From NCBI GenBank assembly GCA_016782485.1, contig JADHYK010000001.1, positions 30,081-94,080 on the forward strand: a stretch of 64,000 nucleotides of DNA. Reading direction: 5' to 3'. The notes beneath the pieces were generated by a model. The model was not told where the DNA came from, ran no database searches, and saw only the letters and a list, made by a program, of their open reading frames with translations. Of this stretch, positions 452 through 59,100 are shown in pieces (positions within the stretch are counted from its first letter, which is position 1; the number at the start of each line of letters is the position of its first letter). The translations under genes were made by a program, and so were the position numbers. This stretch comes from Candidatus Omnitrophota bacterium (GTDB lineage: Bacteria; Omnitrophota; Gorgyraeia; Gygaellales; Profunditerraquicolaceae).

Positions 452-2166
452 AGCTTCTTTTCAAGAATAATCATCTGCACAGAATAGGGAGTTAATTGCA
501 GGGCCTCCTGATAAGATCCGTCTGCATTTATTTCTTTTTCTTCCAGAGGGACGAATTTACAATCCCTGCTGCAGGAAGAATCTACGGCAAACCTCTGGTA
601 CGTATAATCCCCTTTTGTAAGGTTATTGATATTTAAATTTATGCGGCGGGCTGAAAGACTAAGCCTTGCGGCTTTCTCGTATAACTGCTTTGCCCTCTTG
701 AGCAATGCCTTAATCTTTTTGGTTGCGCGCACAGCGGCAATCTCAATCTCGCCGGAGGAAATTTTTTCTATTGTCTCGCGTTTGATAAGGTTGAGCAGGA
801 TTTTTCTTTCTGCCTTTTTTAAAGTGGCGATGTTGCGCGATAAATAGTTATTAACTATCTCCGGGTCGATGTAGTTATAAATAATAACCGCCAATCCCTC
901 TTTTCTCCTGGTGGCGATAACCCCGCAGAAGTCATCTTCGAATTTCGTTAAAAACATATCCGGCCCGAGATTCTCCAGCATCCTGAAGACGTTATAGGTG
1001 GCCTTGGGGCTGCCCCGGTACCCTGAATACTCCGGATCAAAGCTAAATATACCGACGTTACGCACCACGCCCTCTTTGTTATTCTTAAAATCCTCCAGGC
1101 AAAAATAGACCTGATAATCAATACCTGTCTCGTACATATTCTTGATGCGGGCAGGAATATAGCTGGCAGCGATATAAGATTTTTCCTTCCTCTCGGGCAG
1201 GACATTGGCGCTGCGGTCGTAATTCCATTCGTCGACTATTAAAGGTATATTCCTGTCAAATTTAAAATAAGAAAGCCACTCCCGTATCAGTTTGACCGCG
1301 GTCTTTTTATAAGCGGTGTTTTCCTTCTCTACGGCCTGGTCGGTAGAAAATCCGTGCCAGCTGATAAAATCCAGGGGCAGCCGGTAGCGGTAGCAGAATT
1401 TAATCAGTTCGTAGATCAGGCTTTTCTGGGGAGTCACGATAGTATTGCCGTCGAGATTCTGAAACCACCAGCTTACTGCCGGCCCGCCTATCGGGATATG
1501 CATCTTGGTCTCTGCCTTTAGCTCTTTTATGCCCTCTGCGACCGCGCGGTAAAGGTTAAAATACTCCTGTTTTCTGCCTAAAAAGAAATCGTCCAGATCC
1601 GGGGCATTCCATATTTCATACCAGACATTATACTTTTTATCGCAGCTTAACTCCCGGACCGTAGACTTAATTAACTCCTTAAATGCCTTCAGATTCCAGG
1701 GCGGGCTTTTTTTATCCAAGACCTTGCCTAAACCGGCCGGCGTACCAAAGATGTCCAGAATGACTATGCCTCCGGCATCGCTTATGGACTTAATGATGCT
1801 TTCGTAATTGCCAAGAAGCGCTGTCTGCGCCTCTTTATCCTTGGAAAGCTGGTTTATCTCCCAGAGGCTGTATTGCAGCCGATAAACCCCCCTGAAGCCG
1901 ATCTCCTGCCGCCAGATATCCACCGCCTCTTTGGCCGCCATCGCCTGCGGCCAGCCGGGGTCGCGATGAAATCCCCGGCCGCTTAAATCAACGCCGGGCC
2001 TGAATACCTTTGGCAGGGGGACGGTATTAGAGGCAGCATCGAGATTAATTACCAGGCTGTCATCCTGGGCGAATAGTCCACAGCGTCCAGCAGTCCACAG
2101 TCCACAGACAAAGACCATAATAAACAAGAAAAAACATACTAGGGCCTTCTGGCTTAAATTTAACAT
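448..2166 (-). CDS. Exported GH clan A (GH5/GH39-like) TIM-barrel protein with a basic coiled-coil C-terminal tail. The NEP acid/base motif reads NAP
   Basis: N-terminal signal-peptide-like hydrophobic segment ending AFAQ. Motif YEIWNAPD at the clan GH-A (F/Y)E(I/V)WNEP position, and IVDEWN at the nucleophile position. 572 aa. Confidence 0.45.
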   Translation of the reverse strand: MLNLSQKALVCFFLFIMVFVCGLWTAGRCGLFAQDDSLVINLDAASNTVPLPKVFRPGVDLSGRGFHRDPGWPQAMAAKEAVDIWRQEIGFRGVYRLQYSLWEINQLSKDKEAQTALLGNYESIIKSISDAGGIVILDIFGTPAGLGKVLDKKSPPWNLKAFKELIKSTVRELSCDKKYNVWYEIWNAPDLDDFFLGRKQEYFNLYRAVAEGIKELKAETKMHIPIGGPAVSWWFQNLDGNTIVTPQKSLIYELIKFCYRYRLPLDFISWHGFSTDQAVEKENTAYKKTAVKLIREWLSYFKFDRNIPLIVDEWNYDRSANVLPERKEKSYIAASYIPARIKNMYETGIDYQVYFCLEDFKNNKEGVVRNVGIFSFDPEYSGYRGSPKATYNVFRMLENLGPDMFLTKFEDDFCGVIATRRKEGLAVIIYNYIDPEIVNNYLSRNIATLKKAERKILLNLIKRETIEKISSGEIEIAAVRATKKIKALLKRAKQLYEKAARLSLSARRINLNINNLTKGDYTYQRFAVDSSCSRDCKFVPLEEKEINADGSYQEALQLTPYSVQMIILEKKL

Positions 2167-5588: not shown

Positions 5589-6242
5589 TTATTTATTCAT
5601 TACCAGTTTATGCGGCCGGGTCGTCTTCTTAAAATCCTTTGCCGGCTGAATTTCTTTTATTTTCCCGATTTTATTTTTCTTTTCCAATTCTTTGTAAATT
5701 AAAACCCAGGCACAGTCTTTGTCTTTGTCCACTTCGCACTTGCCTTTATCTACGCCGCCGCAAGGCCCGTTTAATAACCCCTTGGAGCAAAGAGTAATCG
5801 GGCAGATCCCGGCGGTAATGCTCAAGACGCACTCGCCGCAGAGAGAGCACTTTTCATAGAAATCGCCCTGCGCATCCATTACTGCCCCGAAGACGGTATT
5901 TAAGGCGGGCAGGACCGTAAGCGATAATCTGTCGTTATCCTTTACCGACTGTACCCCCAGGCCGCAGGCCAAAACCAAGACCGCTTCGCATTCTCTTAAC
6001 GCTTTCATATTCCTGGCTAACTCGGCCTTTAATTTAGCCGCTACGCAGGGGGCCTCCGGCATACACGTACCGGTCACGACTTTGCCCTGCTTTTCTAACT
6101 CTGCCTTCATTGCGGCCAGCTCCGGCTCTCCGCCGGTCTTGGCAGTCGCCGCGCACTCCCCGCAACCCACCAGGAATATTTTTTTATATTCTTTGAGGCT
6201 CTCTAATATCTCCTTAAGCGCCTTCTTTTCGGTAATAATCAT
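5589..6242 (-). CDS. Cys-rich protein with a methylenetetrahydrofolate reductase C-terminal-like domain (MetV-like)
   Basis: GCGECAAT...[32 protein letters not shown] matches the MTHFR_C zinc-ribbon-like domain. Forms an operon with nifU and the 5-FCL gene. Confidence 0.5.
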
Positions 6243-10783: not shown

Positions 10784-11047
10784 AATAAAAAATCCCCGCA
10801 GAGTGCCGTCAGAGCGAAAATCTGAACCGATTTGGCTTCAAGTGGGGCCCTCTCCCGGACGCCGAAACGCCAGGGAATTGTGGGCTCCCTTATTATTGGT
10901 GTTGGTTCAATAATTATCGGGCTTCCAACGCGCACCGCAGGGATATCTAAAAGAACCGTAATTTTTGCTACATAAAAAGTATAGCACAGATTATCATTAA
11001 ATTCAATAGCTGCTAAAAACCTGCCTGTACGCGTATGCCCCTGCCCC

Positions 11048-13117
11048 TTAGCGCAACTTGGCGCTAAAAACTTCTTCCAGCAGCCTGCAGATCAGGCTAT
11101 GGACGGGGTTAACCTCTGCGTCGCTGAGTGTGCGTTCGCCGGAACGATAAAAACAGGAGATGGTCAGGCCGATATTGCCGGGAGGGATCTGGCTGCCCCG
11201 GTAATAATCCGCGACCTTCATACTGCAGAGAAGCGGCCGGCCTCTCTCCAGCGCCGCCTCCAACACCTTCTTTATCGGAACCTCCCTGCTCAATACCACG
11301 CTTATATCCCTGGTGATTCCCGGATATTTGGGGGGCGCGACAAAGGTCTTTGCCGGCCTGGCGTGGGCAAGGAGCCTGTCTAAATAAAGTTCGGCGGCAA
11401 CCACTTCTTTATTCTTGATATCCAACCTCTCTAAAAGCTCCTTGCGTAAAATAAAAATTTCGCCTGTTCTCTCCGTGCCGGCATAGATGCCGATCGAAGC
11501 AGCATTTTCTTTGGCATGAAAAGCGCAGCTACCCACTCCCAGCCTCTCGAATAATACCTCAACTATCCCTTTTAAATGCAGAAGCCCGAATCTTTCCTTA
11601 ACCAGGCCCTGGCCCAAAAGATGCGCCTTTGTCCCGCAGAGGGCTATGCCCAACATTAACTCTTCTTTTGGCCCGGAGGCGGAAGAAGAAAATACCTTTG
11701 CCAGCTCAAAAATATTCACGTACTCCTGCTGGTGATTAAGGTTATAGCCAATGCGCGCGGCAATACTCGGTACAAGATGCGGCCTCAAAACCTCCTGTTC
11801 CCTGCTAAGCGGATTCAAGATTCCGATCGGCTCAGGCTCATCCGGCAGCATAAAACCATTCAATAATTCCTTATCAACTAGTCCGTAGGTAATTGCCTCG
11901 CTCAATCCCAGTCCGGCAAGCATGTTCTTTAGCGCAGAGACCAGCTCCCTTTTTCCCGGGCGGAGTGAATGCGGCACTAAAAGCGGCAGGGTGGTAGGGA
12001 TTTTATCAAAGCCGTGTATCCGGGCTGTCTCCTCAACCAGATCTATCTGTGCCTTGATATCCTGCCTGTGCGAAGGAACTCCGGCTATAAAGCTATCCCT
12101 GCCAGTGGCTGCTACTTTAAACCCCAGGCCGATTAAAATCTTCTTTATCCTGGCGGGGGAGATCTTGGTTCCCAAAATCTTATTCGTATCCGCTACGCTC
12201 AGGCGGATGCTCTTTTGCTTCGCCCTGGCCTGGCCCGAACTCTTTGCCAAAATACATTCTCCCTGCGCCAAGGTGCGGATTAATTCTGCCGCGCAAGCGG
12301 AGGCAGGCCCAACCGCCCCCCAATCAATGCCTCGTTCAAACCTGTACGCCGAATCACTCTCTAGCTTTAGCTTTTGCCTTGCCTGACGCACGGTTATGGG
12401 ATTAAATACCGCTGCCTCTAAAAGGATGTTCCTTGTGCCGTCGGATACTTGCGTGTCGTTACCGCCCATGATGCCTGCGATTGCTACCGGCCCTCCTTTA
12501 TCTGCAATAACCAGGATGCCCTTATCCAGCAGCCGCTCCTCTCCGTCGATGGTAACGATCTTTTCCTGCTCTTTTGCCCGGCGTACATATATCTCTGCCG
12601 CCGCGTTTTGAGCTAATCTGTCTAAATCAAAGGCATGTAAAGGCTGGCCCCTCTCAAACAAAAGGTAATTAGTGATATCCACAACGTTGTTTATGCTGCG
12701 GCAACCGACGAGCTCCAGCCTTTCTTTAAGCCAGGCAGGCGAAGGCCCCACTTTTACATCTTTGATTATCTTTGCGGTGTATAAAGGACAGCCTTTTTTG
12801 TCCTCAATATTTATTTTTAATATGTTAGCGTTTAGCGGATAGCGTTTAGCGTATAGGCGACCTTTACTATGCGCTCTACGCTCTACGCTATACGCTCGAA
12901 TTTTCTTATTAGTAATTGCCGCCACTTCTCTTGCGATGCCGATAATGCTTAAACAATCCGGGCGGTTAGAGGTCACCTCTATCTCAAAGACAAAATCTCC
13001 TGCCTGCTTTTGGAGCGCAACCACCTCCAGCCCTGCCATGGTCAGCCTCTCAGCAAGCGCCTCTGCCGCCAGATCGATCCTTACAAACTCCTTCAACCAA
13101 TTATAGGTTACTTTCAT
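11048..13117 (-). CDS. pheT: Phenylalanine--tRNA ligase beta subunit (short form, 689 aa) carrying an in-frame repeat insertion
   Basis: tRNA-binding, B3/4, B5 and FDX-ACB domain patterns. Residues AYSVERRAHSKGRLYAKRYPLNA are encoded by the 70-bp repeat. Confidence 0.9.
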   Translation of the reverse strand: MKVTYNWLKEFVRIDLAAEALAERLTMAGLEVVALQKQAGDFVFEIEVTSNRPDCLSIIGIAREVAAITNKKIRAYSVERRAHSKGRLYAKRYPLNANILKINIEDKKGCPLYTAKIIKDVKVGPSPAWLKERLELVGCRSINNVVDITNYLLFERGQPLHAFDLDRLAQNAAAEIYVRRAKEQEKIVTIDGEERLLDKGILVIADKGGPVAIAGIMGGNDTQVSDGTRNILLEAAVFNPITVRQARQKLKLESDSAYRFERGIDWGAVGPASACAAELIRTLAQGECILAKSSGQARAKQKSIRLSVADTNKILGTKISPARIKKILIGLGFKVAATGRDSFIAGVPSHRQDIKAQIDLVEETARIHGFDKIPTTLPLLVPHSLRPGKRELVSALKNMLAGLGLSEAITYGLVDKELLNGFMLPDEPEPIGILNPLSREQEVLRPHLVPSIAARIGYNLNHQQEYVNIFELAKVFSSSASGPKEELMLGIALCGTKAHLLGQGLVKERFGLLHLKGIVEVLFERLGVGSCAFHAKENAASIGIYAGTERTGEIFILRKELLERLDIKNKEVVAAELYLDRLLAHARPAKTFVAPPKYPGITRDISVVLSREVPIKKVLEAALERGRPLLCSMKVADYYRGSQIPPGNIGLTISCFYRSGERTLSDAEVNPVHSLICRLLEEVFSAKLR
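12827..12896 (-). mobile_element. 70-bp imperfect-palindromic element inserted in frame in pheT. Identical (70/70) to the copy in pyrK
   Basis: On the coding strand AGCGTATAGCGTAGAGCGTAGAGCGCATAGTAAAGGTCGCCTATACGCTAAACGCTATCCGCTAAACGCT. The 5' 30 nt and 3' 30 nt are about 80% reverse-complementary around a TAAAGGTCGCC core. Confidence 0.8.
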
Positions 13118-13119
13118 GC

Positions 13120-14133
13120 TTAGAACTGCCTCAAAAATCTTAAATCATTCTCAAAAAATAATCTAATATCGTTAATGCCGTATTTGAGCATGGCGATTCT
13201 TTCAATCCCTAAGCCAAAGGCAAAACCCGTATATTTCTTGGGGTCGTAACCGACGTGCTTAAAGACGGCCGGATGTATCATGCCCGCGCCCAATATCTCC
13301 AGCCACCCCTTCCTGCCGCAGACAGAACAGCCTTTGCCGTTGCAGATAATGCAACGGATATCTACTTCTGCCGAGGGCTCGGTAAAAGGAAAGAAATGCG
13401 GCCGGAAACGCATTTTAATCTCCTGCCCAAAAACCGCTTTGGCAAGAATCTCTAAGGCCCCCTTCAAATCGGAAAATTTTATGCTCTTATCCACCATAAA
13501 ACCTTCAATCTGATGGAACATAAAGGAATGACTGGCATCCACGGCATCCGGACGGTATACGCGGCCGGGGACTACTATCGCCAGCGGAGGTTTATGCGCC
13601 TTCATCGCCCTTATCTGCACAGGCGAAGTATGGCTGCGTAGCAATAGCCGATTATTTAAATAAAAGGTATCAAAGGCGTCCCGCGAAGGATGCTCCAGGG
13701 GGATATTTAAAGCGGTAAAGTTGTTATATTCGCTTTCAATCTCCGGCCCTTCCACGACGGAAAAGCCGATCCTCATAAATATGGCGCAAATCTCATCGAT
13801 GACCCTGGTCAAAGGATGCAGATGGCCCAGCTCCTGCGTAATCCCCGGCAGGCCGATATCCGCTGGCCTTGAAACAGCGCCCTCGCCGTTCAAGGAATCG
13901 GCGAACGATTTCTCTTTTTCCTCGATCAGGGAAACTGCCCGCTTCTTTAAGGCGTTGACCGCCTGGCCGAAGGCAGCCCTTTCTTCTTTCTTTAGCCCGG
14001 GGATGGAACCGGTTAATTGCGCAATGATCCCTTTTCTCCCCAGGTATTTCAGCCTGAGCTCCTCCAGGGAAACGGCAGAACCGATATTCTGGAAATCGGA
14101 TTCTATTTGAATTTTAACTGCGCCAATATCCAT
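13120..14133 (-). CDS. pheS: Phenylalanine--tRNA ligase alpha subunit
   Basis: Class II aaRS motifs: FRPHFFPFTEPSAEVD, GAGMIHP, GFAFGLGIERIAM. Confidence 0.9.
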   Translation of the reverse strand: MDIGAVKIQIESDFQNIGSAVSLEELRLKYLGRKGIIAQLTGSIPGLKKEERAAFGQAVNALKKRAVSLIEEKEKSFADSLNGEGAVSRPADIGLPGITQELGHLHPLTRVIDEICAIFMRIGFSVVEGPEIESEYNNFTALNIPLEHPSRDAFDTFYLNNRLLLRSHTSPVQIRAMKAHKPPLAIVVPGRVYRPDAVDASHSFMFHQIEGFMVDKSIKFSDLKGALEILAKAVFGQEIKMRFRPHFFPFTEPSAEVDIRCIICNGKGCSVCGRKGWLEILGAGMIHPAVFKHVGYDPKKYTGFAFGLGIERIAMLKYGINDIRLFFENDLRFLRQF

Positions 14134-14612
14134 ATCAAACCTAGTGCCCCCAATAAAACAACTGCGGCGTTTCTCTTGCCTGTATTAAAACTGGATGCCT
14201 CGGGATTATGCCTGCCCGGGGCTATCTTCTCTATCTCGAAGGCATGTATATCAAGGTCACCGCCGTGTTCGGGGCAGGCACGGTGAAAAACTCCGATAAC
14301 CTCAATCAGATCGCCCGTTGAGCGATAACTGCCCGCCAGCAAATCTGCCTGTTTCAATAAATGCCCCTCCAGCCATACGCCGATTGCCTTTTCGCCGTCG
14401 GTTACATTTATCCAGGCAAAATTGCCGCGCCGCATTATATCACCGATAACTTCGCCGGCATAGGCGATTGTTTTACCGTCGTACGCCTGGGCATTCTCTA
14501 TTAATTCTCGGGCGCTGACCGGCTGGGCAAACGCTGTGTAATGTGTAAAGTGTAATGTGTAAAGCAAAATTACATTAAACATTACACATTTAACATTAAA
14601 CAGGTTTCTCAT
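14103..14612 (-). CDS. Hypothetical exported/membrane-anchored protein. Its signal-peptide-like N-terminus is encoded by a palindromic repeat
   Basis: Start taken as ATG 14612..14610, 1 nt after the trkH stop. The track ORF's extra 9 codons overlap trkH. N-terminus MRNLFNVKCVMFNVILLYTLHFTHYTAFA|QP has an AxA-like cleavage site. C-terminal hydrophobic helix. No recognisable family. Confidence 0.4.
   Translation of the reverse strand: MRNLFNVKCVMFNVILLYTLHFTHYTAFAQPVSARELIENAQAYDGKTIAYAGEVIGDIMRRGNFAWINVTDGEKAIGVWLEGHLLKQADLLAGSYRSTGDLIEVIGVFHRACPEHGGDLDIHAFEIEKIAPGRHNPEASSFNTGKRNAAVVLLGALGLIWILAQLKFK
14536..14601. repeat. Second heptamer-based palindromic element (GTGTAAT/GTGTAAA repeats opposing CATTACAC/CATTAAAC) lying inside a CDS
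   Basis: GTGTAATGTGTAAAGTGTAATGTGTAAAGCAAAATTACATTAAACATTACACATTTAACATTAAAC. Same architecture as the pheT/pyrK element with different sequence. Encodes residues 4-25 of the 14103..14612 product. Confidence 0.6.
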
Positions 14613-14613
14613 C

Positions 14614-16119
14614 TTACTTACCTTTGATGACCGCAACAAAGACCCCGATTAAAGTAAATATAGACATAAACTCAAGACGGCCCGCCCACATCTGAAAGAT
14701 GTAGATGTATTTAAGCGCAGCCGGCATAGCGGCGTTAGTAATCCCGCAGGATAATCCTACGTTGGCTGAGGCAGAGGTAGATTCGAATAAAGAATCTATA
14801 AAAGGATACCCGAAGCAGCTTCCGGCAACCGCGCCAAACCAATAAAGGGCAAAGTATGCCAGGGTGATTAAAAACGCCAGCCGCACCTGTTTATCCTCCA
14901 GAAATATCTCCTTGATATGGTGGTATTTCTGCACCACAATTGCTCTCTCCGGAAGGATAATGCGTTTTATGTCCTCTAACAGCGCCTTAAAAATTATCCC
15001 CAGGCGCAGCATCTTGATTGCGCCGGTGGTGGAACAGGCCGCACCTCCCAGGGACATGGCGCAAATTATGCCCACGCGGGCAAGGTGGTTCCATTCGTTA
15101 ACAAACTGGGCGGCGTAAATAGTCTGGTATCCGGTGCCGGTATGGGCGGAAATCAACTGGTAAAAACCTTTGCGGAATAACACTGCCAGCCCCGGATAGG
15201 TACCCAGCTGGGTTAACCCGAAGCCGGTAATAAAAAAGAGGACCATAATGGAGATAAAAAGCGTAACCATCTCTATATTCCTGACTATCTCTCTGCGGTT
15301 GCCCGTCCAGAGGTGGTAATGCAGTTTGAAGTTAAAGGCCCCCAGAATCATTATAATAATGGTGATTATTTCAAAGGGGAGGCTGTGGTAATAAAGTATA
15401 TTTTGTGACTGCGGGGCAAACCCCCCGGTATCAAAAGCGGCCATGAATATACAGACGCCGTGGAAAAAGGCGCTGGCGGGCCTTATCCCGTTGGCCATCC
15501 CCGCTATCGCCAGGGCAGAGGTCCCCAAAATCAGATAGACGATGCTGACAAACCAGATAAACCTGCTGGTATGTATGATATTAGGCAATATCCTTTCATC
15601 ACGGGCCTCGCCCACATACATTTTAAACGCGCCGGAAAAACCTTTAATAAAAAAGGAAAGCGCGACAATTACTATGCCCTGCCCTCCGATAAAAAGGATC
15701 AGGTGCCTCCAAAGGTTGTGTGTAAAAGAGAGGTGGTCAAGGTCCTGGACTAAAATCAGTCCGGTGGTGGCAAACCCCGACATTGAATCAAAGCAGGCAT
15801 CCAGGAATGACTTCCAGTGCCCGCTTAAATATAACGGGATCGCCCCCAATAACATGGCCACCAGCCATGATAAGGAGACTACCACCATCCCCTGCATCCA
15901 GTTTAATTCTTTTTCGGTAGAGCATGCCCTGGTCAGGAGCAGGCCGGCTATCAGGGCAATCTCTATGGCGATTAAAAAATCCAGGACGGGGCTTGCCTCT
16001 CGGAAGAATACCAGGCCGGCAAAGACGGGGACAAACATCGAAAGGGCAAGGCCGAGGATAATCTTGCCTAAATAATAACCGATCACTACAAAATCCTGCG
16101 GCCGGGGCTTTAATATCAT
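14614..16119 (-). CDS. trkH: Trk/Ktr-type K+ transporter membrane subunit
   Basis: TrkH/KtrB family, 501 aa. Repeated M-P-M segments with selectivity-filter-like GFATTG, GGQG and SANVGLS. Confidence 0.85.
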   Translation of the reverse strand: MILKPRPQDFVVIGYYLGKIILGLALSMFVPVFAGLVFFREASPVLDFLIAIEIALIAGLLLTRACSTEKELNWMQGMVVVSLSWLVAMLLGAIPLYLSGHWKSFLDACFDSMSGFATTGLILVQDLDHLSFTHNLWRHLILFIGGQGIVIVALSFFIKGFSGAFKMYVGEARDERILPNIIHTSRFIWFVSIVYLILGTSALAIAGMANGIRPASAFFHGVCIFMAAFDTGGFAPQSQNILYYHSLPFEIITIIIMILGAFNFKLHYHLWTGNRREIVRNIEMVTLFISIMVLFFITGFGLTQLGTYPGLAVLFRKGFYQLISAHTGTGYQTIYAAQFVNEWNHLARVGIICAMSLGGAACSTTGAIKMLRLGIIFKALLEDIKRIILPERAIVVQKYHHIKEIFLEDKQVRLAFLITLAYFALYWFGAVAGSCFGYPFIDSLFESTSASANVGLSCGITNAAMPAALKYIYIFQMWAGRLEFMSIFTLIGVFVAVIKGK

Positions 16120-20699: not shown

Positions 20700-20705
20700 A
20701 ATTAA

Positions 20706-20782
20706 TGGTGGGCTCAAGTGGACTCGAACCACCGACCTTCTCCATGTCAAGGAGACACTCTAACCAACTGAGCTATGAGCCC
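20706..20782 (-). tRNA. tRNA-Val (anticodon GAC), CCA encoded
   Basis: GGGCTCATAGCTCAGTTGGTTAGAGTGTCTCCTTGACATGGAGAAGGTCGGTGGTTCGAGTCCACTTGAGCCCACCA. 7-bp acceptor, anticodon loop TTGACAT, T-loop TTCGAGT. Confidence 0.85.
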
Positions 20783-20793
20783 GTAATCTACAT

Positions 20794-20875
20794 GGGCAAG
20801 GAGGGAGTCGAACCCTCATGGCCTTGCGGCCAATGGATTTTAAATCCATCGTGTAAGCCATTCCACCACTTGCCC
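20794..20875 (-). tRNA. tRNA-Leu (anticodon TAA), type II long variable arm, CCA not encoded
   Basis: GGGCAAGTGGTGGAATGGCTTACACGATGGATTTAAAATCCATTGGCCGCAAGGCCATGAGGGTTCGACTCCCTCCTTGCCCA. Anticodon loop TTTAAAA. Variable-arm hairpin GGCC-GCAA-GGCC. Confidence 0.8.
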
Positions 20876-20975
20876 GGCTGCGCATATTACGCAGATACTT
20901 CACTCACTGCGGCGCTTGTCGCGCCGCTACGTTCGTTCAGTATCCATGAAATTTTTTCTCGTCGGAAAAATTTCA

Positions 20976-51446: not shown

Positions 51447-52145
51447 ATGAAGAAACGCATTAAAATCAACGGTATTATTATAGTTGCGGCTGTTGCCCTG
51501 GCAGTATTATTTCCCGATGAGTTTCTGCGCAGCGGGCGGATGAGATTCTGCGATGAATTTCTTAGGATAACCGGCTTAGGGCTGGTACTGTTAGGGCAGT
51601 TATTGCGGGTTTCGGCGCGCGGGCATAAGGCCGAACTTTCAGAGAATAGCCGTTCCCTGGTATGTACAGGGCCCTATATGGCAGTGCGCAACCCCATGTA
51701 TCTGGGGATACTTTTAACCGGCTCAGGCGTGGTGCTGGTATTGTTTCAGTGGTGGGTGGCGGTAATATTTTTATCGGTTTTTGTCATCCGCTACATCTTG
51801 CTGATACTAGAGGAGGAAAAGAAGCTCCTGGCGTTTTTTCCCAGGGAGTATGAGGAGTATATGTCCAGGGTGCCGCGCCTATTTCCAAGCTTTAGCATAT
51901 TGCGCGGGGAGGTAAGTGATTACCTGCCCTTCAAATTCTTCTGGTTAAAGAAAGAAATGGCTTCGATTGCAGCGGTGGTATTAATTACCTTAGGCATAGA
52001 GTTCTGGCAGAAGGCGAAAATCGGGAGTTTGGCGGCCTATCCCGAAGAATTAGCCGCGGCATTAATCGTAATCCTGCTTTTTTCTTGCTTCGGTGTTTAT
52101 TTAAATAAGAGGACCTATGGTTTCAAAGAAGAAGTTACAATTTAA
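51447..52145 (+). CDS. ICMT/PEMT-family membrane methyltransferase
   Basis: VRNPMYLGILL ... EEEKKLLAFFPREYEEYMSRVPRLFP matches isoprenylcysteine carboxyl / phospholipid methyltransferase motifs. Confidence 0.55.
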   Translation: MKKRIKINGIIIVAAVALAVLFPDEFLRSGRMRFCDEFLRITGLGLVLLGQLLRVSARGHKAELSENSRSLVCTGPYMAVRNPMYLGILLTGSGVVLVLFQWWVAVIFLSVFVIRYILLILEEEKKLLAFFPREYEEYMSRVPRLFPSFSILRGEVSDYLPFKFFWLKKEMASIAAVVLITLGIEFWQKAKIGSLAAYPEELAAALIVILLFSCFGVYLNKRTYGFKEEVTI

Positions 52146-52968
52146 AGCAAAGCTGTTATATAATAAGAGAGAAAAGGGGAGTTTTTTTCGTCTGAAGATC
52201 CTTGCCCCGGCTATAGCCGCAAGTTGCCTGCCCGGGCAATTTGTCACCCTGAGATTAACCGACGGCTGCCAGCCGTTGTTAAGAAGGCCTTTTAGCATAC
52301 ACAGGATAAGCGGGTCCGGGGTTGAAATACTTTATGAGCTGGTCGGCCGGGGGACGCAAATCCTATCGCAGAAGAGGCCGGGGGAGTACCTGGATATAAT
52401 CGGGCCGCTGGGTAACGGCTTTAACTATCCGCTATCCGCTATCCGCTATCCGCTATCAATTTTGGTTGCCGGCGGAATGGGAGTCGCGCCGCTATTGTTT
52501 CTGGCAGAAAGGTTAGCGTATAGCGTAGAGCGTAGAGCGCATAGTAAAGGTCGCCTATACGCTAAACGCTATCCGCTAAACGCTTTTGTATTGATCGGCG
52601 CTAAGAATAAAAATCAAATCTTGTGCGAAAAGGAATTTAGAAAATTTGGTTGCACGGTAAAGATCGCCACCGATGACGGCTCTAAGGGCTATAAAGGCAA
52701 AGTCACGCAATTATTGCAGCACTTACTATCGACTATCGACCATCGACTATCGACCATCTACGGCTGCGGCCCGCGCCCTATGCTCAAAGAGATCAGCCGC
52801 ATCTGTCAAAGGCGTAATCTAGCGGCGCAACTTTCACTGGAAGAGCATATGGCCTGCGGCATCGGCGCCTGCCTGGGCTGCGCAGTAGATACAAAAGAGG
52901 GTTATAAGACGGTCTGTAAAGACGGGCCGGTATTTGATGCGGACCGGATAATCTGGGAGGCAGAATGA
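52117..52968 (+). CDS. pyrK: Dihydroorotate dehydrogenase (class 1B) electron-transfer subunit, carrying three in-frame repeat insertions
   Basis: FAD/NAD-binding (RPFSI, GPLGNGF, VAGGMGVAPL) and a C-terminal 2Fe-2S Cys cluster (CGIGACLGCAV). Inserted peptides: NYPLSAIRYPLS, AYSVERRAHSKGRLYAKRYPLNA, STIDHRLSTI. Confidence 0.85.
   Translation: MVSKKKLQFKAKLLYNKREKGSFFRLKILAPAIAASCLPGQFVTLRLTDGCQPLLRRPFSIHRISGSGVEILYELVGRGTQILSQKRPGEYLDIIGPLGNGFNYPLSAIRYPLSILVAGGMGVAPLLFLAERLAYSVERRAHSKGRLYAKRYPLNAFVLIGAKNKNQILCEKEFRKFGCTVKIATDDGSKGYKGKVTQLLQHLLSTIDHRLSTIYGCGPRPMLKEISRICQRRNLAAQLSLEEHMACGIGACLGCAVDTKEGYKTVCKDGPVFDADRIIWEAE
52425..52457 (+). repeat. Tandem heptamer array (CTATCCG x4.7) inside pyrK, in frame
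   Basis: CTATCCGCTATCCGCTATCCGCTATCCGCTATC. The motif also occurs at the 3' end of the 70-bp element (CGCTATCCGCT). Confidence 0.7.
52515..52584 (+). mobile_element. 70-bp imperfect-palindromic element inserted in frame in pyrK, identical to the pheT copy
   Basis: 70/70 nt identical to the reverse complement of 12827..12896. Both copies are in the same reading frame relative to the element and encode the same peptide. Confidence 0.8.
52725..52758 (+). repeat. Tandem 8/7-mer array (CTATCGAC/CATCGAC) inside pyrK, in frame
   Basis: ACTATCGACTATCGACCATCGACTATCGACCATC, encoding STIDHRLSTI. Confidence 0.6.
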
Positions 52969-53324
52969 ATCGGGTACTCTATATTGCTTTGGGCTTAATC
53001 GCCGGCATAGCCAGCGGCATCCTTGGCATCGGAGGCGGGATGATTTTAATCCCGGCCATGGTATTTGTCTTCGGGCTGACGCAGCATCAGGCACAGGGCA
53101 CTACCCTTGCCCTGATGGTCCCGCCCATCGGATTATTAGCGGCATTACGCTATTATCAGAGCGGGAACGTGAAATTAGGCATGGCGGCATTTATCTGTCT
53201 GGGGTTTTTCGTGGGGGGCCTCATTGGAGCCAACATGGTGCAAAATGTGCCGGAACTTTTTTTAAAAAGGCTGTTCGGGGCAGTTTTGTTAATAGTGGCG
53301 GTCAGGATGATCCTTACTAAATGA
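52965..53324 (+). CDS. Half-size TauE/SafE (DUF81) family membrane protein
   Basis: 119 aa, 4 TM helices, GIGGGMILIPAMV motif. Lies between pyrK and pyrD. Confidence 0.5.
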   Translation: MNRVLYIALGLIAGIASGILGIGGGMILIPAMVFVFGLTQHQAQGTTLALMVPPIGLLAALRYYQSGNVKLGMAAFICLGFFVGGLIGANMVQNVPELFLKRLFGAVLLIVAVRMILTK

Positions 53325-56050: not shown

Positions 56051-57786
56051 GCCGTATAGTCAAGATTAACGGCAATATGGTTACGGTTGAGCTGGACAAC
56101 TTTGTCGTCCAGAACGAGGTTGCCTATATCGTCCACGGGAAAGAGCGCCTGAAGTCCGAAGTTATACGCATCAAAGGCAGGCTTGCCGAAATGCAGGTAT
56201 ATGAGAATACGGGGGGATTAAAGATCGGCGAGAAGGTCGAATTCACCAGCGAACTTCTTTCCGTGGAGCTGGGGCCGGGGTTATTGGGCCAGATATTCGA
56301 CGGGCTGCAGAACCCCCTGCCGCAGCTGGCAGAGAAGTGCGGCTTCTTCCTGCAGAGAGGTGTTTATGTGCATGCCCTTGAAGAGCGTTCAGAATGGCAG
56401 TTTACACCGCTGGCAAAAGCCGGCGATAGGTTGCGGGCAGGGGACAGATTGGGTTTTGTCCCGGAAAAAATATTCAAGCATTTTATTATGGTGCCCTTTA
56501 ATCTTTCCGGCAACCTGGAGGTAACTAGTATCGCCGAGCCGGGAAAATATAATTTAAAAGACACAGTGGCAAAACTGAAAGACGGCTCCGGCAGGCATTA
56601 TGAATGTTTCTTAAGGCAGTCCTGGCCGGTAAAAATCCCCATCGAGGCATATTCCGAAAAATTAATGCCCGTTCAGCCCCTGGTTACTAAAATGCGGCTG
56701 ATCGATTCGCTCTTTCCGATTGCCCGCGGCGGGACCTATTGCATACCCGGACCTTTCGGCGCAGGAAAGACCGTTCTGCAGCAGCTGACCAGCCGCCACG
56801 CCGAGGCGGACATAGTAGTTATCGCTGCCTGCGGGGAGCGCGCAGGCGAGGTAGTAGAGACCTTAAAGACCTTTCCGAAGATAACCGATCTTATGACAGG
56901 CAGGCCCTTAAGCGACCGTACGGTGATTATCTGCAATACAAGCTCTATGCCGGTTGCGGCGCGCGAATCAAGCGTGTACACCGCAGTCACCATCGCCGAA
57001 TATTACCGTCAGATGGGGTTGAATGTTTTACTTTTGGCGGATTCCACTTCGCGGTGGGCGCAGGCGATGCGGGAGATGTCCGGCCGCCTTGAGGAGATTC
57101 CCGGGGAAGAGGCCTTCCCCGCATATCTTGAATCGCGCATCGCCTCTTTTTATGAAAGGGCAGGGGTAGTCAGGCTGCGCGACGGGACAACGGGTTCGGT
57201 TACTATCGGCGGGACGGTAAGCCCTGCCGGAGGAAATTTTGAAGAGCCGGTTACGCAGGCGACGCTAAAGGTGGTGGGTGCCTTTCACGGGCTTTCGCGC
57301 GAACGCTCCAATGCCCGGCGTTACCCGGCGATAGACCCGCTGATCAGCTGGAGCAAATACAGGAGTTTTATCGATGAAAAGGTCAGCCGTAAAGGCCATC
57401 AGATTCTGCGCAAGAGCCACGACGTAGCCCAGATGATGAAGGTAGTCGGAGAAGAGGGCACTGCCCTTTATGACTACCTGGATTATCTTAAGGGTGAATT
57501 TTTCGATTTTGTTTACCTGCAGCAGAACGCTTTTGATAAAGTTGATGAGGCAACGCCGCAACAGAGGCAGGTTTACGTATTTAATTTTATCTACCGGATT
57601 CTGGAGGCGGAGTTTGCCCTGGAGGATAAAGAAAAGGCGCTGCATTTCTTCCAGCGCTTGAGGCAACTCTTTCGCGGATGGAATTCCGCGCAATGGAATT
57701 CCGCGGAGTTTAAGAATATAGAAGAGGAGATTTCTTTGTTCATAGAGGCAAAGCTCAAAAAACAGGACCAACCGATCAATGCATAA
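56032..57786 (+). CDS. atpA: V-type ATP synthase catalytic subunit A
   Basis: [13 protein letters not shown]-loop, non-homologous region, 584 aa. Contains a tandem 14-mer (57677..57705) encoding [11 protein letters not shown]. Confidence 0.95.
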
Positions 57787-59086
57787 AGTTTATACCAACA
57801 TTATTCAGATCGCCGGGGATGTTATTACGGTGGAGGCCGAAGGCGTAGGTTATATGGAGATTGCCCGGGTTTCTACGCGGCGCGGCACCTCCCTCGCGCA
57901 GGTCATCCGCCTCGACGGTAAAAAGGTCTCCCTGCAGGTTTTTGCCGGCAGCAGGGGCGTTTCGACGGGGGACGAGGTGCGTTTCCTGGGGCATCCGATG
58001 CGCATTGCCAGCGGCAGCGACCTCCTGGGCCGCATCTTTAACGGCAGCGGAGCGGCGATGGATAAGGGGCCTGCCTTGAGCCAAAATTTGGTTGATATAG
58101 GGGGGCCGTCGGTCAATCCGGTGAAAAGAATTATCCCCAATAAAATGGTGCGCACCGGGATTCCGATGATAGACCTCTTTAACTCGCTGGTGGAATCGCA
58201 GAAACTACCGGTATTTTCGGTAGCCGGAGAGCCCTACAACGGATTATTGGCCAGGATTGCCATACAGGCGGAAGTAGATATTATAATTTTGGGGGGCATG
58301 GGCTTAAAGTATGACGACTACCTGTTCTTCAGAGATACCCTGCAAAAACAGGGGGCGCTGTCGCGTTCGATATTCTTTATACATACTGCCGCAGACCCGA
58401 CGGTAGAGTGCCTCCTGGTGCCAGACATCAGCTTAGCGGTAGCAGAGCAGTTTGCCTTAAACGGAAAACGCGTCCTGGTTTTGCTTACGGATATGACAAA
58501 TTTTTGCGATGCGCTGAAAGAAATCTCCATTACTATGGAGCAGGTCCCCTCAAACCGCGGATACCCCGGAGACTTATACAGCCAGCTGGCTGCGCGTTAT
58601 GAGAAGGCAGTTGATTTCGAGGGGGCAGGTTCAATTACCATATTGGCCGCCACCACCATGCCCGGCGATGATGTCACCCATCCGGTGCCGGATAATACCG
58701 GTTATATTACCGAAGGGCAATTCTATCTTAAGGGCGGGGTAATAGAGCCCTTTGGCTCGTTAAGCCGTTTAAAGCAACAGGTTAACGGCAAGACGCGCGC
58801 TGACCATCGTACGATAATGGATACAATGATTCAGTTGTTTGCCAGTTATCGCGAAGCCCTGGAAAAACAATCTATGGGGTTTCAGATGAGTTCGTGGGAT
58901 AACAAGCTGCTGAAATACGGCAGGCTTTTTGAAAGCGAAATGATGTCGCTTGAGGTTAATATCTCCCTTGAGAACGCGCTTGACCGCGGGTGGCAGCTTT
59001 TAGCGGAGTGTTTCACTCCTGAAGAGACCGGTATAAAGAAGTCGATGATAGAGCAGTATTGGCCAAAAACAGTAGTTAGTAGATAG
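57779..59086 (+). CDS. atpB: V-type ATP synthase subunit B
   Basis: 435 aa, regulatory B subunit. [18 protein letters not shown]. Confidence 0.95.
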
Positions 59087-59100
59087 TAGTTGGTAGATAG
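59071..59100 (+). repeat. Heptamer tandem repeat (AGTAGTT AGTAGAT AGTAGTT GGTAGAT) spanning the atpB stop and the atpB-atpD spacer
   Basis: Read from sequence. Gives TAG stops in several frames. Confidence 0.6.

Follow-up and report, generated by a model that had tools for sequence, protein, structure and literature searches.

The gene pyrK in a 64,000-nucleotide stretch of DNA from a Candidatus Omnitrophota bacterium (GenBank assembly GCA_016782485.1, contig JADHYK010000001.1, positions 30,081 to 94,080; this whole stretch is called the window, and coordinates refer to it unless another locus is named) carries short repeats at three sites, two of them arrays of a 7-nt unit and the third a 70-nt palindrome. 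The same three positions, a domain linker and two loops, are hot spots for such cassettes in pyrK across the phylum, while the sequences that occupy them change from lineage to lineage. The reading we favor, at a probability of roughly 0.6, is that selfish or slippage-born heptamer arrays, together with palindromes derived from them, are tolerated in loops, copied, and recombined. The features on which the argument turns are these.

52117..52968, plus strand: pyrK, electron-transfer subunit of dihydroorotate dehydrogenase B, the 283-residue open reading frame (ORF) that hosts all three repeat sites
52425..52457, plus strand: site 1, CTATCCG x4.7 (Tandem Repeats Finder score 66, 100% matches)
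52515..52584, plus strand: site 2, a 70-nt palindromic element with inverted heptamer arrays as its arms
52725..52758, plus strand: site 3, ACTATCG/ACCATCG x4.9 (Tandem Repeats Finder, 88% matches, or 100% when read as a 14-mer)

Tandem Repeats Finder recovers the heptamer arrays and the 70-nt element where a first-pass annotation of this DNA had placed them, and its description of them as frame-preserving is borne out, since all three fall in frame within the single ORF 52117-52968. Within the element, the left arm is TAGCGTA x4.4 (52514-52544) and the right arm CTAAACG x4.3 (52555-52584), the latter alternating with CTATCCG; over 25 nt the inverted arms are 84% complementary. The motif CGCTATCCGCT is common to the site-1 array and the right arm, which are 83% identical (family D1), so the earlier suggestion that arrays and element are related stands. 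When the window was compared with itself under one scoring scheme for all periods, arrays emerged only at period 7 (five of them) and its multiple 14; periods 4-6 and 8-13 gave none. The gene pyrK makes up 1.3% of the window and contains three of the five.

Short repeats can confuse assemblers, but the probability of an assembly or sequencing artefact is close to negligible here. The identical PyrK protein occurs on six contigs, drawn from no fewer than three separate assemblies (two in ENA and one an NCBI genome record); one of these contigs has two synonymous single-nucleotide polymorphisms (SNPs) and another has many SNPs in its flanks. Because the same protein is found in several separate assemblies, one with variant flanks, the repeats are not an assembly artefact. 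The arrays are, moreover, shorter than one sequencing read, and the reading frame is kept. The repeats in pyrK are real and translated.

The product of the gene matches Pfam models PF10418 (1.2e-17) and PF00175, and is 100% identical to one protein from a metagenome-assembled genome labeled 'Candidatus Omnitrophica'. Its best relative of solved structure is Lactococcus PyrK (5ksw_B and 1ep3_B, E about 3e-32). An AlphaFold (AF2) model built from 120 homologs, with a mean predicted local distance difference test (pLDDT) score of 79.5, superimposes on 5ksw_B with template modeling scores of 0.72 and 0.77 and also matches 1ep1_B structurally; the protein has the expected FAD/NAD ferredoxin-reductase-type fold with a C-terminal 2Fe-2S domain. 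According to this model and the alignment with Lactococcus PyrK, the repeats map to loops, as had been proposed. Site 1, encoding N103-S114 (NYPLSAIRYPLS), forms the linker from the FAD barrel (strand 91-98) to the NAD domain (first strand 114-119), and pLDDT drops below 50 at residues 107-110. Site 2, encoding A134-A156 (AYSVERRAHSKGRLYAKRYPLNA), is modeled as a low-confidence beta-hairpin (139-149) between helix 120-135 and strand 157-162. Site 3, encoding L204-I214 (LSTIDHRLSTI), runs from the end of helix 196-206 through a loop into the beginning of strand 213-217, ahead of the YGCGP motif. The first-pass annotation had put this third array just before the cysteine cluster; it precedes instead the strand with the conserved YxCGP motif, some 30 residues upstream of the Fe-S domain (residues 242-278 by Pfam).

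That annotation regarded the repeats as three separate insertions, with relaxed constraint as one possible cause. Three independent, private insertions into a gene under weakened selection would account for the extra length relative to locus L165 (P0003), over which the window is 18 nt longer at site 1 and 54 nt longer at site 2, but the idea is very improbable and is contradicted by comparison with orthologs. In the two nearest relatives, site 3 is just as long. Site 1 exceeds the nearest relative, and also Lactococcus PyrK, by only two residues; against the latter, site 2 is 16 residues longer and site 3 four. A clear net gain is evident for the 70-nt element alone (18 residues over L165). 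Nor does constraint appear relaxed: all invariant PyrK motifs are intact, among them the Fe-S cysteines C247, C252, C255, and C267, which are invariant across PyrK homologs, and 90 of 92 fetched ortholog genes read through, the other two running off a contig end. Conservation of the segments in orthologs, which the annotation had named as an argument against insertion, is formally seen at site 3 and partly at site 1. What is conserved there, however, is a set of phylum-wide cassette positions with changing content, which differs from ordinary protein conservation.

The evidence for these positions comes from 89 pyrK genes, 87 of them distinct, extracted from Omnitrophota metagenome and genome loci (cited by L numbers). 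Counting sites 1 to 3 together, most orthologs carry arrays: period-7 arrays are present in 62 of the 87 distinct genes, at two or more sites in 36, and at all three in 12. Among 67 pyrK genes from records not labeled Omnitrophota, only two have arrays. These are L006 (1990-2451) and L017 (1524-1559), labeled Planctomycetia and Elusimicrobia, the latter with GATTACC x5, the commonest site-1 unit of Omnitrophota; either the trait reaches past Omnitrophota or the bins are mislabeled. The units themselves are diverse, with 23 distinct classes at site 1 (GATTACC, GCTACAC, CTTACAG, AACGGGC, AGTCCAC, and others), 20 at site 2 (GTCAAAA, ATCAAAA, CGCAATA, AATCCCA, and others), and 35 at site 3 (CTATCGA, TACGCAA, GGCGACC, ATCACCT, and others). 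Of the 52 orthologs with a site-3 array, 20 have a unit no more than one nucleotide away from CTATCGA. The peptide encoded at site 3 is that of the family consensus, LSTxDYRLSTI.

Period 7 dominates over other periods. Across 531 kb of Omnitrophota loci we found 139 arrays of period 7, 21 of period 8, and at most two at any other period from 4 to 13. Density is far higher in pyrK, with 103 arrays in 72 kb as compared with 36 in 459 kb of flanking sequence (142 vs. 7.8 per 100 kb; Poisson p about 1e-89), and the suggestion in the first-pass annotation that the locus is prone to generating repeats is in this respect well founded. Long ORFs contain 140 of 146 arrays, and an inverted partner accompanies 20 of the 146 (about 14%). 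Perfect copies make up 89 of the 146; the arrays are young.

A tandem unit that is not a multiple of three, repeated perfectly within an ORF, is the classical architecture of phase-variable contingency loci, such as those built on tetranucleotide and heptanucleotide repeats in Haemophilus (PMC2651432). Gain or loss of one unit could switch pyrK off and on, so that a host-dependent bacterium would reversibly lose its de novo synthesis of pyrimidines, and Omnitrophota have been described as host-dependent nanobacteria (PMC10066038). We consider such a switch highly unlikely. None of the 90 ortholog genes readable to the stop codon is frameshifted, and the six contigs of the strain are identical in protein. 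Arrays of four to five units slip rarely, and the same repeats occur in pheT, where switching off would be lethal. Unlike contingency loci, then, the arrays are short, sit in housekeeping genes, and come with no frameshifted alleles. L120, which looked like a frameshifted allele, proved intact, its apparent internal stop being spurious.

Lengths at the sites change in steps that keep the frame. A 7-nt unit read in three frames gives a peptide period of seven residues (21 nt), and lengths at site 2 cluster at 13, 20, 27, and 34 residues, with the short 13-residue form in 25 orthologs. Where an allele has no array, one resident copy of a unit found amplified elsewhere is often present (168 cases vs. 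59 in the control), and the corresponding length differences show a main peak at 0 nt and a secondary peak at exactly 21 nt. Two examples are L002 (AACGGGC x1.3) against L096 (x4.3) and L144 against L101 (GTCAAAA), where the allele lacking the array is 21 nt shorter. Arrays in ORFs peak at 31-33 nt, that is, one and a fraction plus three units. Some lineages differ by exactly three units.

Content turns over quickly, and whole patches are mosaic. The nearest genome (GCA_043802145.1, represented by L164 and L168) is 93.3% identical to the window over 15.4 kb of synteny; within pyrK, identity to L164 is 94% in the 5' part and 91% in the 3' part. The region that departs most from this background is the following.

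52382..52665, plus strand: mosaic patch around sites 1 and 2, the least conserved part of the 15.4 kb, with identity falling to 37% per 60 nt

The second-worst patch against L164 is 52686-52845. L164 has no array at site 1, an ATCAAAA array with a different insert at site 2, and CTACGAA x3.4 replacing CTATCGA at site 3 with length exactly equal. The 56 nt between sites 1 and 2 are nearest to L104, L124, and L125 (88-90%), with L164 outside the best eight. Likewise, in the pairs L087/L111 and L095/L115, which are 98-99% identical, the members differ only in the site-3 cassette patch and 30-50 nt of its upstream flank. Sites of one gene also tend to hold similar units: when 60 pairs of units from different sites of the same gene were compared, 8 pairs were no more than one nucleotide apart, where 1.06 would be expected and none of 2000 permutations reaches 8. 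L124, with GCTACAC, GCTCCAC, and GCTTCAC across its sites, is an example.

Copying between loci is most evident from the 70-nt element, which has a second, identical copy elsewhere in the window.

12827..12896, minus strand: the 70-nt element again, lying within pheT (11048-13117, minus strand) and in frame, 70/70 identical and with sharp ends

Both copies encode the same peptide, AYSVERRAHSKGRLYAKRYPLNA. The pheT product has the Pfam domains B3_4, B5, tRNA_synthFbeta, and FDX-ACB, and in a set of about 120 Omnitrophota PheT orthologs, hairpin cassettes of many families are seen at the same position, after IAREVAAIT. In the nearest PheT relatives (88% and 85% identity) this position is taken by other cassettes, and pheT of L168 has a different hairpin with CATGGGC and CAAGACT arms. 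Members of the element family in L001, L081-L085, and L088 keep the arms and differ in the loops. Intergenic members, one of them directly after pyrK in L081, have an in-frame TAG where copies in ORFs have GAG; to judge from these sequences, selection appears to remove stops from the ORF copies.

Cassette replacement and insertion occur at other genes, too. One further hairpin in the window has been exchanged relative to L168, whose hairpin at that site has ATCAAAT and ATTTTGC arms and a longer loop, with flanks identical up to the cassette:

14535..14602, minus strand: hairpin (TGTGTAA)4-loop-(ACATTAA)n at the 5' end of ORF 14103-14639 (178 residues, no Pfam match)

Small palindromes of two sizes are also found. 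In-frame double mini-palindromes of 42 nt (TCCGCCA-N7-TGGCGGA twice) are present in thrS, pheS, and pyrK (site 2) of a relative, where they amount to polymorphisms at about 93% identity, the window having clean empty sites (L168, near window 19917 and 13429). A 21-nt palindrome, CCTGCCTGNCCGGCAGGCAGG, encoding LPVRQAG or CLSGRQ, recurs among the loci, often splitting heptamer arrays cleanly, and is absent from the 64-kb window. Its copies are located as follows.

L081, 3402-3422: CCTGCCTGNCCGGCAGGCAGG
L118, 3410-3430: CCTGCCTGNCCGGCAGGCAGG
L092, 5803-5823: CCTGCCTGNCCGGCAGGCAGG
L121, 355-375 and 6506-6526: CCTGCCTGNCCGGCAGGCAGG
L153, 5741-5761: CCTGCCTGNCCGGCAGGCAGG

A dedicated copy-paste enzyme, a recombinase or transposase such as the tyrosine transposases associated with repetitive extragenic palindromic (REP) sequences, which would act on single-stranded hairpins, might write cassettes at array or hairpin targets. 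On this view the fixed positions would be true targets and more than places of tolerance. Such an enzyme would explain identical 70-nt copies in two unrelated essential genes, the arms of one family conserved over distant genomes in genic and intergenic settings, the cassette at 14535-14602 swapped right up to identical flanks, mini-palindromes of 21 and 42 nt set into arrays and into three genes of the relative (thrS, pheS, and pyrK) opposite empty sites in the window, and units common to the sites of one gene. It is nevertheless an unlikely explanation. Target-site duplication is absent at both copies of the element (flanks GGTT...TTTG and TTCG...AACA), and no transposase or other such enzyme turned up, in a window that was not screened for transposases. 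Several replacements include 30-50 nt of flank that has diverged, as is characteristic of ordinary homologous recombination, and alleles with one resident unit and no array fit growth in place. A bolder form of the idea, that a dedicated enzyme rewrites cassettes (heptamer arrays, hairpins with heptamer arms, or 21-nt mini-palindromes) quantized in 21-nt steps at fixed loops of PyrK, PheT, PheS, and ThrS and thereby creates hypervariable, possibly functional surface loops, we hold to be doubtful.

Function at the level of nucleic acid was also weighed: the elements, as hairpins of mRNA or DNA or as periodic tracts, could pace translation at domain boundaries, stabilize the message, or regulate the pyr operon. 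Persistence of the sites across the phylum while their sequence changes would be typical of RNAs conserved in structure; site 1 falls exactly on the domain boundary, an intergenic copy of the family lies just past pyrK in L081, and the hairpins are stable (for the 70-nt element, -30 kcal/mol in sense, z -2.6, and -37 kcal/mol in antisense, z -6.2). Most arrays, however, stand alone and can form no hairpin, as the count of 20 inverted partners among 146 indicates. Many orthologs have no array at a given site, the 25 with a 13-residue site 2 among them, and units are unrelated between lineages, so a sequence-specific binder would not fit. An Rfam scan of 51900-53100 with E values up to 1 matched no family. 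Taken together, these results make such a role improbable; the most likely function of the repeats is none.

The favored reading, selfish or slippage-born arrays with derived palindromes, would work as follows. The class consists of solo 7-nt arrays, usually of four to five units, and of palindromes with arrays as arms, and it pervades Omnitrophota genomes. The three fixed positions in pyrK are old sites with young and changing content. Arrays would expand from one resident heptamer, and contract to it again, three units (21 nt) at a time, because only such steps keep the reading frame, and replication slippage or template switching is the probable generator. Sequences would also be copied between loci of one genome, presumably by transposition or ectopic conversion, which would account for the element shared without change by pyrK and pheT and for similar units within a gene. 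Patches bearing cassettes would move between lineages by homologous recombination. Selection on probably neutral repeats would merely filter for absence of stops, retention of frame, and tolerable length. Explanations by one process alone were considered and set aside. Gradual drift of an ancestral array as the sole process conflicts with unrelated cassettes in genes 94-99% identical and with a site-1 array identical amid saturated flanks; in-place slippage as the sole process does not yield the 70/70 copy in pheT or the units common to sites of one gene; and transposition as the sole process is weakened by divergent flanks that travel with the cassettes.

Several observations weigh against this account or are poorly explained by it. 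The 18-fold excess of arrays in pyrK over its flanks is hard to attribute to simple tolerance. The loci were selected via pyrK, and one of the patterns used in the search, PLGNGFNY, reaches the start of site 1, a caveat of ascertainment. Identity survives amid saturated divergence: the arms of the element are 97-100% identical across lineages in which the synonymous sites of the flanks are saturated, and so, despite flanks equally saturated, is the CTATCCG array in L166, L167, and L081. Such identity is unexpected under neutral slippage alone and needs re-seeding from a pool, or selection. The missing target-site duplication and the want of a transposase in the unscreened window tell here as well. 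Slippage itself went unobserved, since copy number does not differ among near-identical assemblies (L161-L163); the polymorphism in heptamer number between strains that the first-pass annotation had suggested looking for is absent from them. Metagenome contigs are consensus sequences, and some mosaics could be assembly chimeras. The stronger antisense fold of the element is accounted for by avoidance of stop codons on the coding strand, but it could also indicate a role for the other strand and fits the reading poorly. The preference for a 7-nt unit is likewise ill explained.

Comparison with known repeats shows partial likeness to several classes. Rickettsia palindromic elements (Ogata et al. 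2000) are, according to PMC10969869, dispersed, in frame in housekeeping genes, and about 100-150 nt long. The Omnitrophota element is likewise a dispersed, multicopy palindrome in frame in unrelated housekeeping genes, with a family-specific peptide, at positions compatible with the fold (a surface site judged for PyrK only, from the AF2 model). Unlike the Rickettsia elements, it is 70 nt long with tandem heptamers as arms; cassettes of many families occupy the same protein positions across the phylum and are replaced between close relatives; and its host belongs to a candidate phylum that is free-living or epibiotic. The comparison made here is one of structure and placement.

Heptanucleotide repeats are known as the short tandemly repeated repetitive sequences of cyanobacteria, the G-rich heptamers of Xanthomonas and Nostoc, and the long simple sequence repeats of Mrazek (PMC4692102, PMC4679880), and in Xanthomonas and Nostoc four units are preferred (PMC4692102). 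The Omnitrophota arrays share with them head-to-tail 7-nt units, an excess of period 7, about four units per array, and many copies per genome; polymerase slippage has been proposed as the origin of the known repeats, as it is for these. For the preference itself, the one explanation in the literature is an idea based on the polymerase footprint (Mrazek 2007, cited in PMC4679880). The known repeats are mainly intergenic and use few units, whereas the Omnitrophota arrays use dozens of units (at least five in the 64-kb window) and are genic (140 of 146 in long ORFs), in frame, and at orthologous codon positions.

REP sequences and REPINs, the hairpin repeats of 20-40 nt associated with RAYT transposases, are extragenic (PMC3116915, PMC3733652). 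Short hairpin repeats, families conserved within and between genomes, and the lack of target-site duplication are common to both, and REP/REPIN copies can serve as targets for other insertions, as here; the Omnitrophota copies are, unlike them, intragenic, 70 nt long, and built from tandem units, and do not belong to that class. Neither do they qualify as miniature inverted-repeat transposable elements, given no target-site duplication at either copy and no known parent insertion sequence. In 2008, Elhai et al. reportedly described small dispersed repeats of Nostoc as hairpins of about 21-27 nt inserted inside tandem heptamers. The 21-nt palindromes in arrays of L081, L091, L118, L123, and L164 resemble those repeats, but differ in host phylum and in being inserted in frame inside genes.

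A literature search on repeats in Omnitrophota or Omnitrophica found no description of such arrays or palindromes, and the main genomics paper on the phylum never mentions repeats. The finding joins heptamer repeats, known mostly from intergenic DNA, with selfish palindromes in frame, known chiefly from Rickettsia, in essential genes across an uncultured phylum. The sites are fixed over the divergence of the phylum, and what they contain is replaced at a rate above that of synonymous change. This amounts to a natural experiment on the question of which protein loops tolerate arbitrary peptides with a period of seven residues, and the reason why bacterial repeats favor a step of 7 nt could be studied cleanly in this system. 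If a dedicated mechanism does operate, the repeats would represent a new kind of mobile DNA. Caution is called for when Omnitrophota proteins are annotated, aligned, or used for phylogeny, in that the segments lack residue-by-residue homology and carry recombination mosaics.

Two further arrays lie in the window.

2075..2107, minus strand: degenerate array of AGTCCAC units in an ORF for a GH39-like glycoside hydrolase, at its N-terminus; L168 retains the array with substitutions
59071..59100, plus strand: AGTAGTT/AGTAGAT array overlapping the stop codon of 57779-59086, which encodes the B subunit of the V/A-ATPase, and extending into the spacer before the D subunit gene

The second is identical in L164, so not every array turns over fast. 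The AGTCCAC unit of the first also forms site-1 or site-2 arrays of pyrK in L129, L110, and L001. Cassettes with 8-nt units (GTCACCAC, CCGGCAGA, GAGAACAA) occupy pyrK sites of L109, L103, L155, L112, and L130, period 8 being the one period besides 7 that is enriched. Period-7 arrays recur at positions of about 1000-1120, 2 kb upstream of pyrK, in L086, L092, L094, L104, L118, L123, and L153, and at about 5740-5860, 2.7 kb downstream, in L089, L111, L120, L122, and L153; these recurring offsets suggest further orthologous hot spots in neighboring genes.

Both pyrD and pyrF lie 3' of pyrK in the window. An upstream PEMT-family ORF overlaps pyrK by 29 nt (52117-52145), and a small TauE-family membrane ORF (52965-53324) sits between pyrK and pyrD with a 4-nt overlap with each; the order PEMT-family ORF, pyrK, TauE-family ORF, pyrD is retained in L164, L165, and L167. 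Around the synthetase genes, the window has 35 extra nucleotides right after pheT (about 11008-11042), and L168 has a 55-nt hairpin-bearing insert between pheS and pheT, which nearly abut in the window. Upstream of thrS, L168 carries about 740 additional nucleotides that include a LAGLIDADG_3-like ORF (1218-1877), lacking in the corresponding gap of the window (about 20700-20969).

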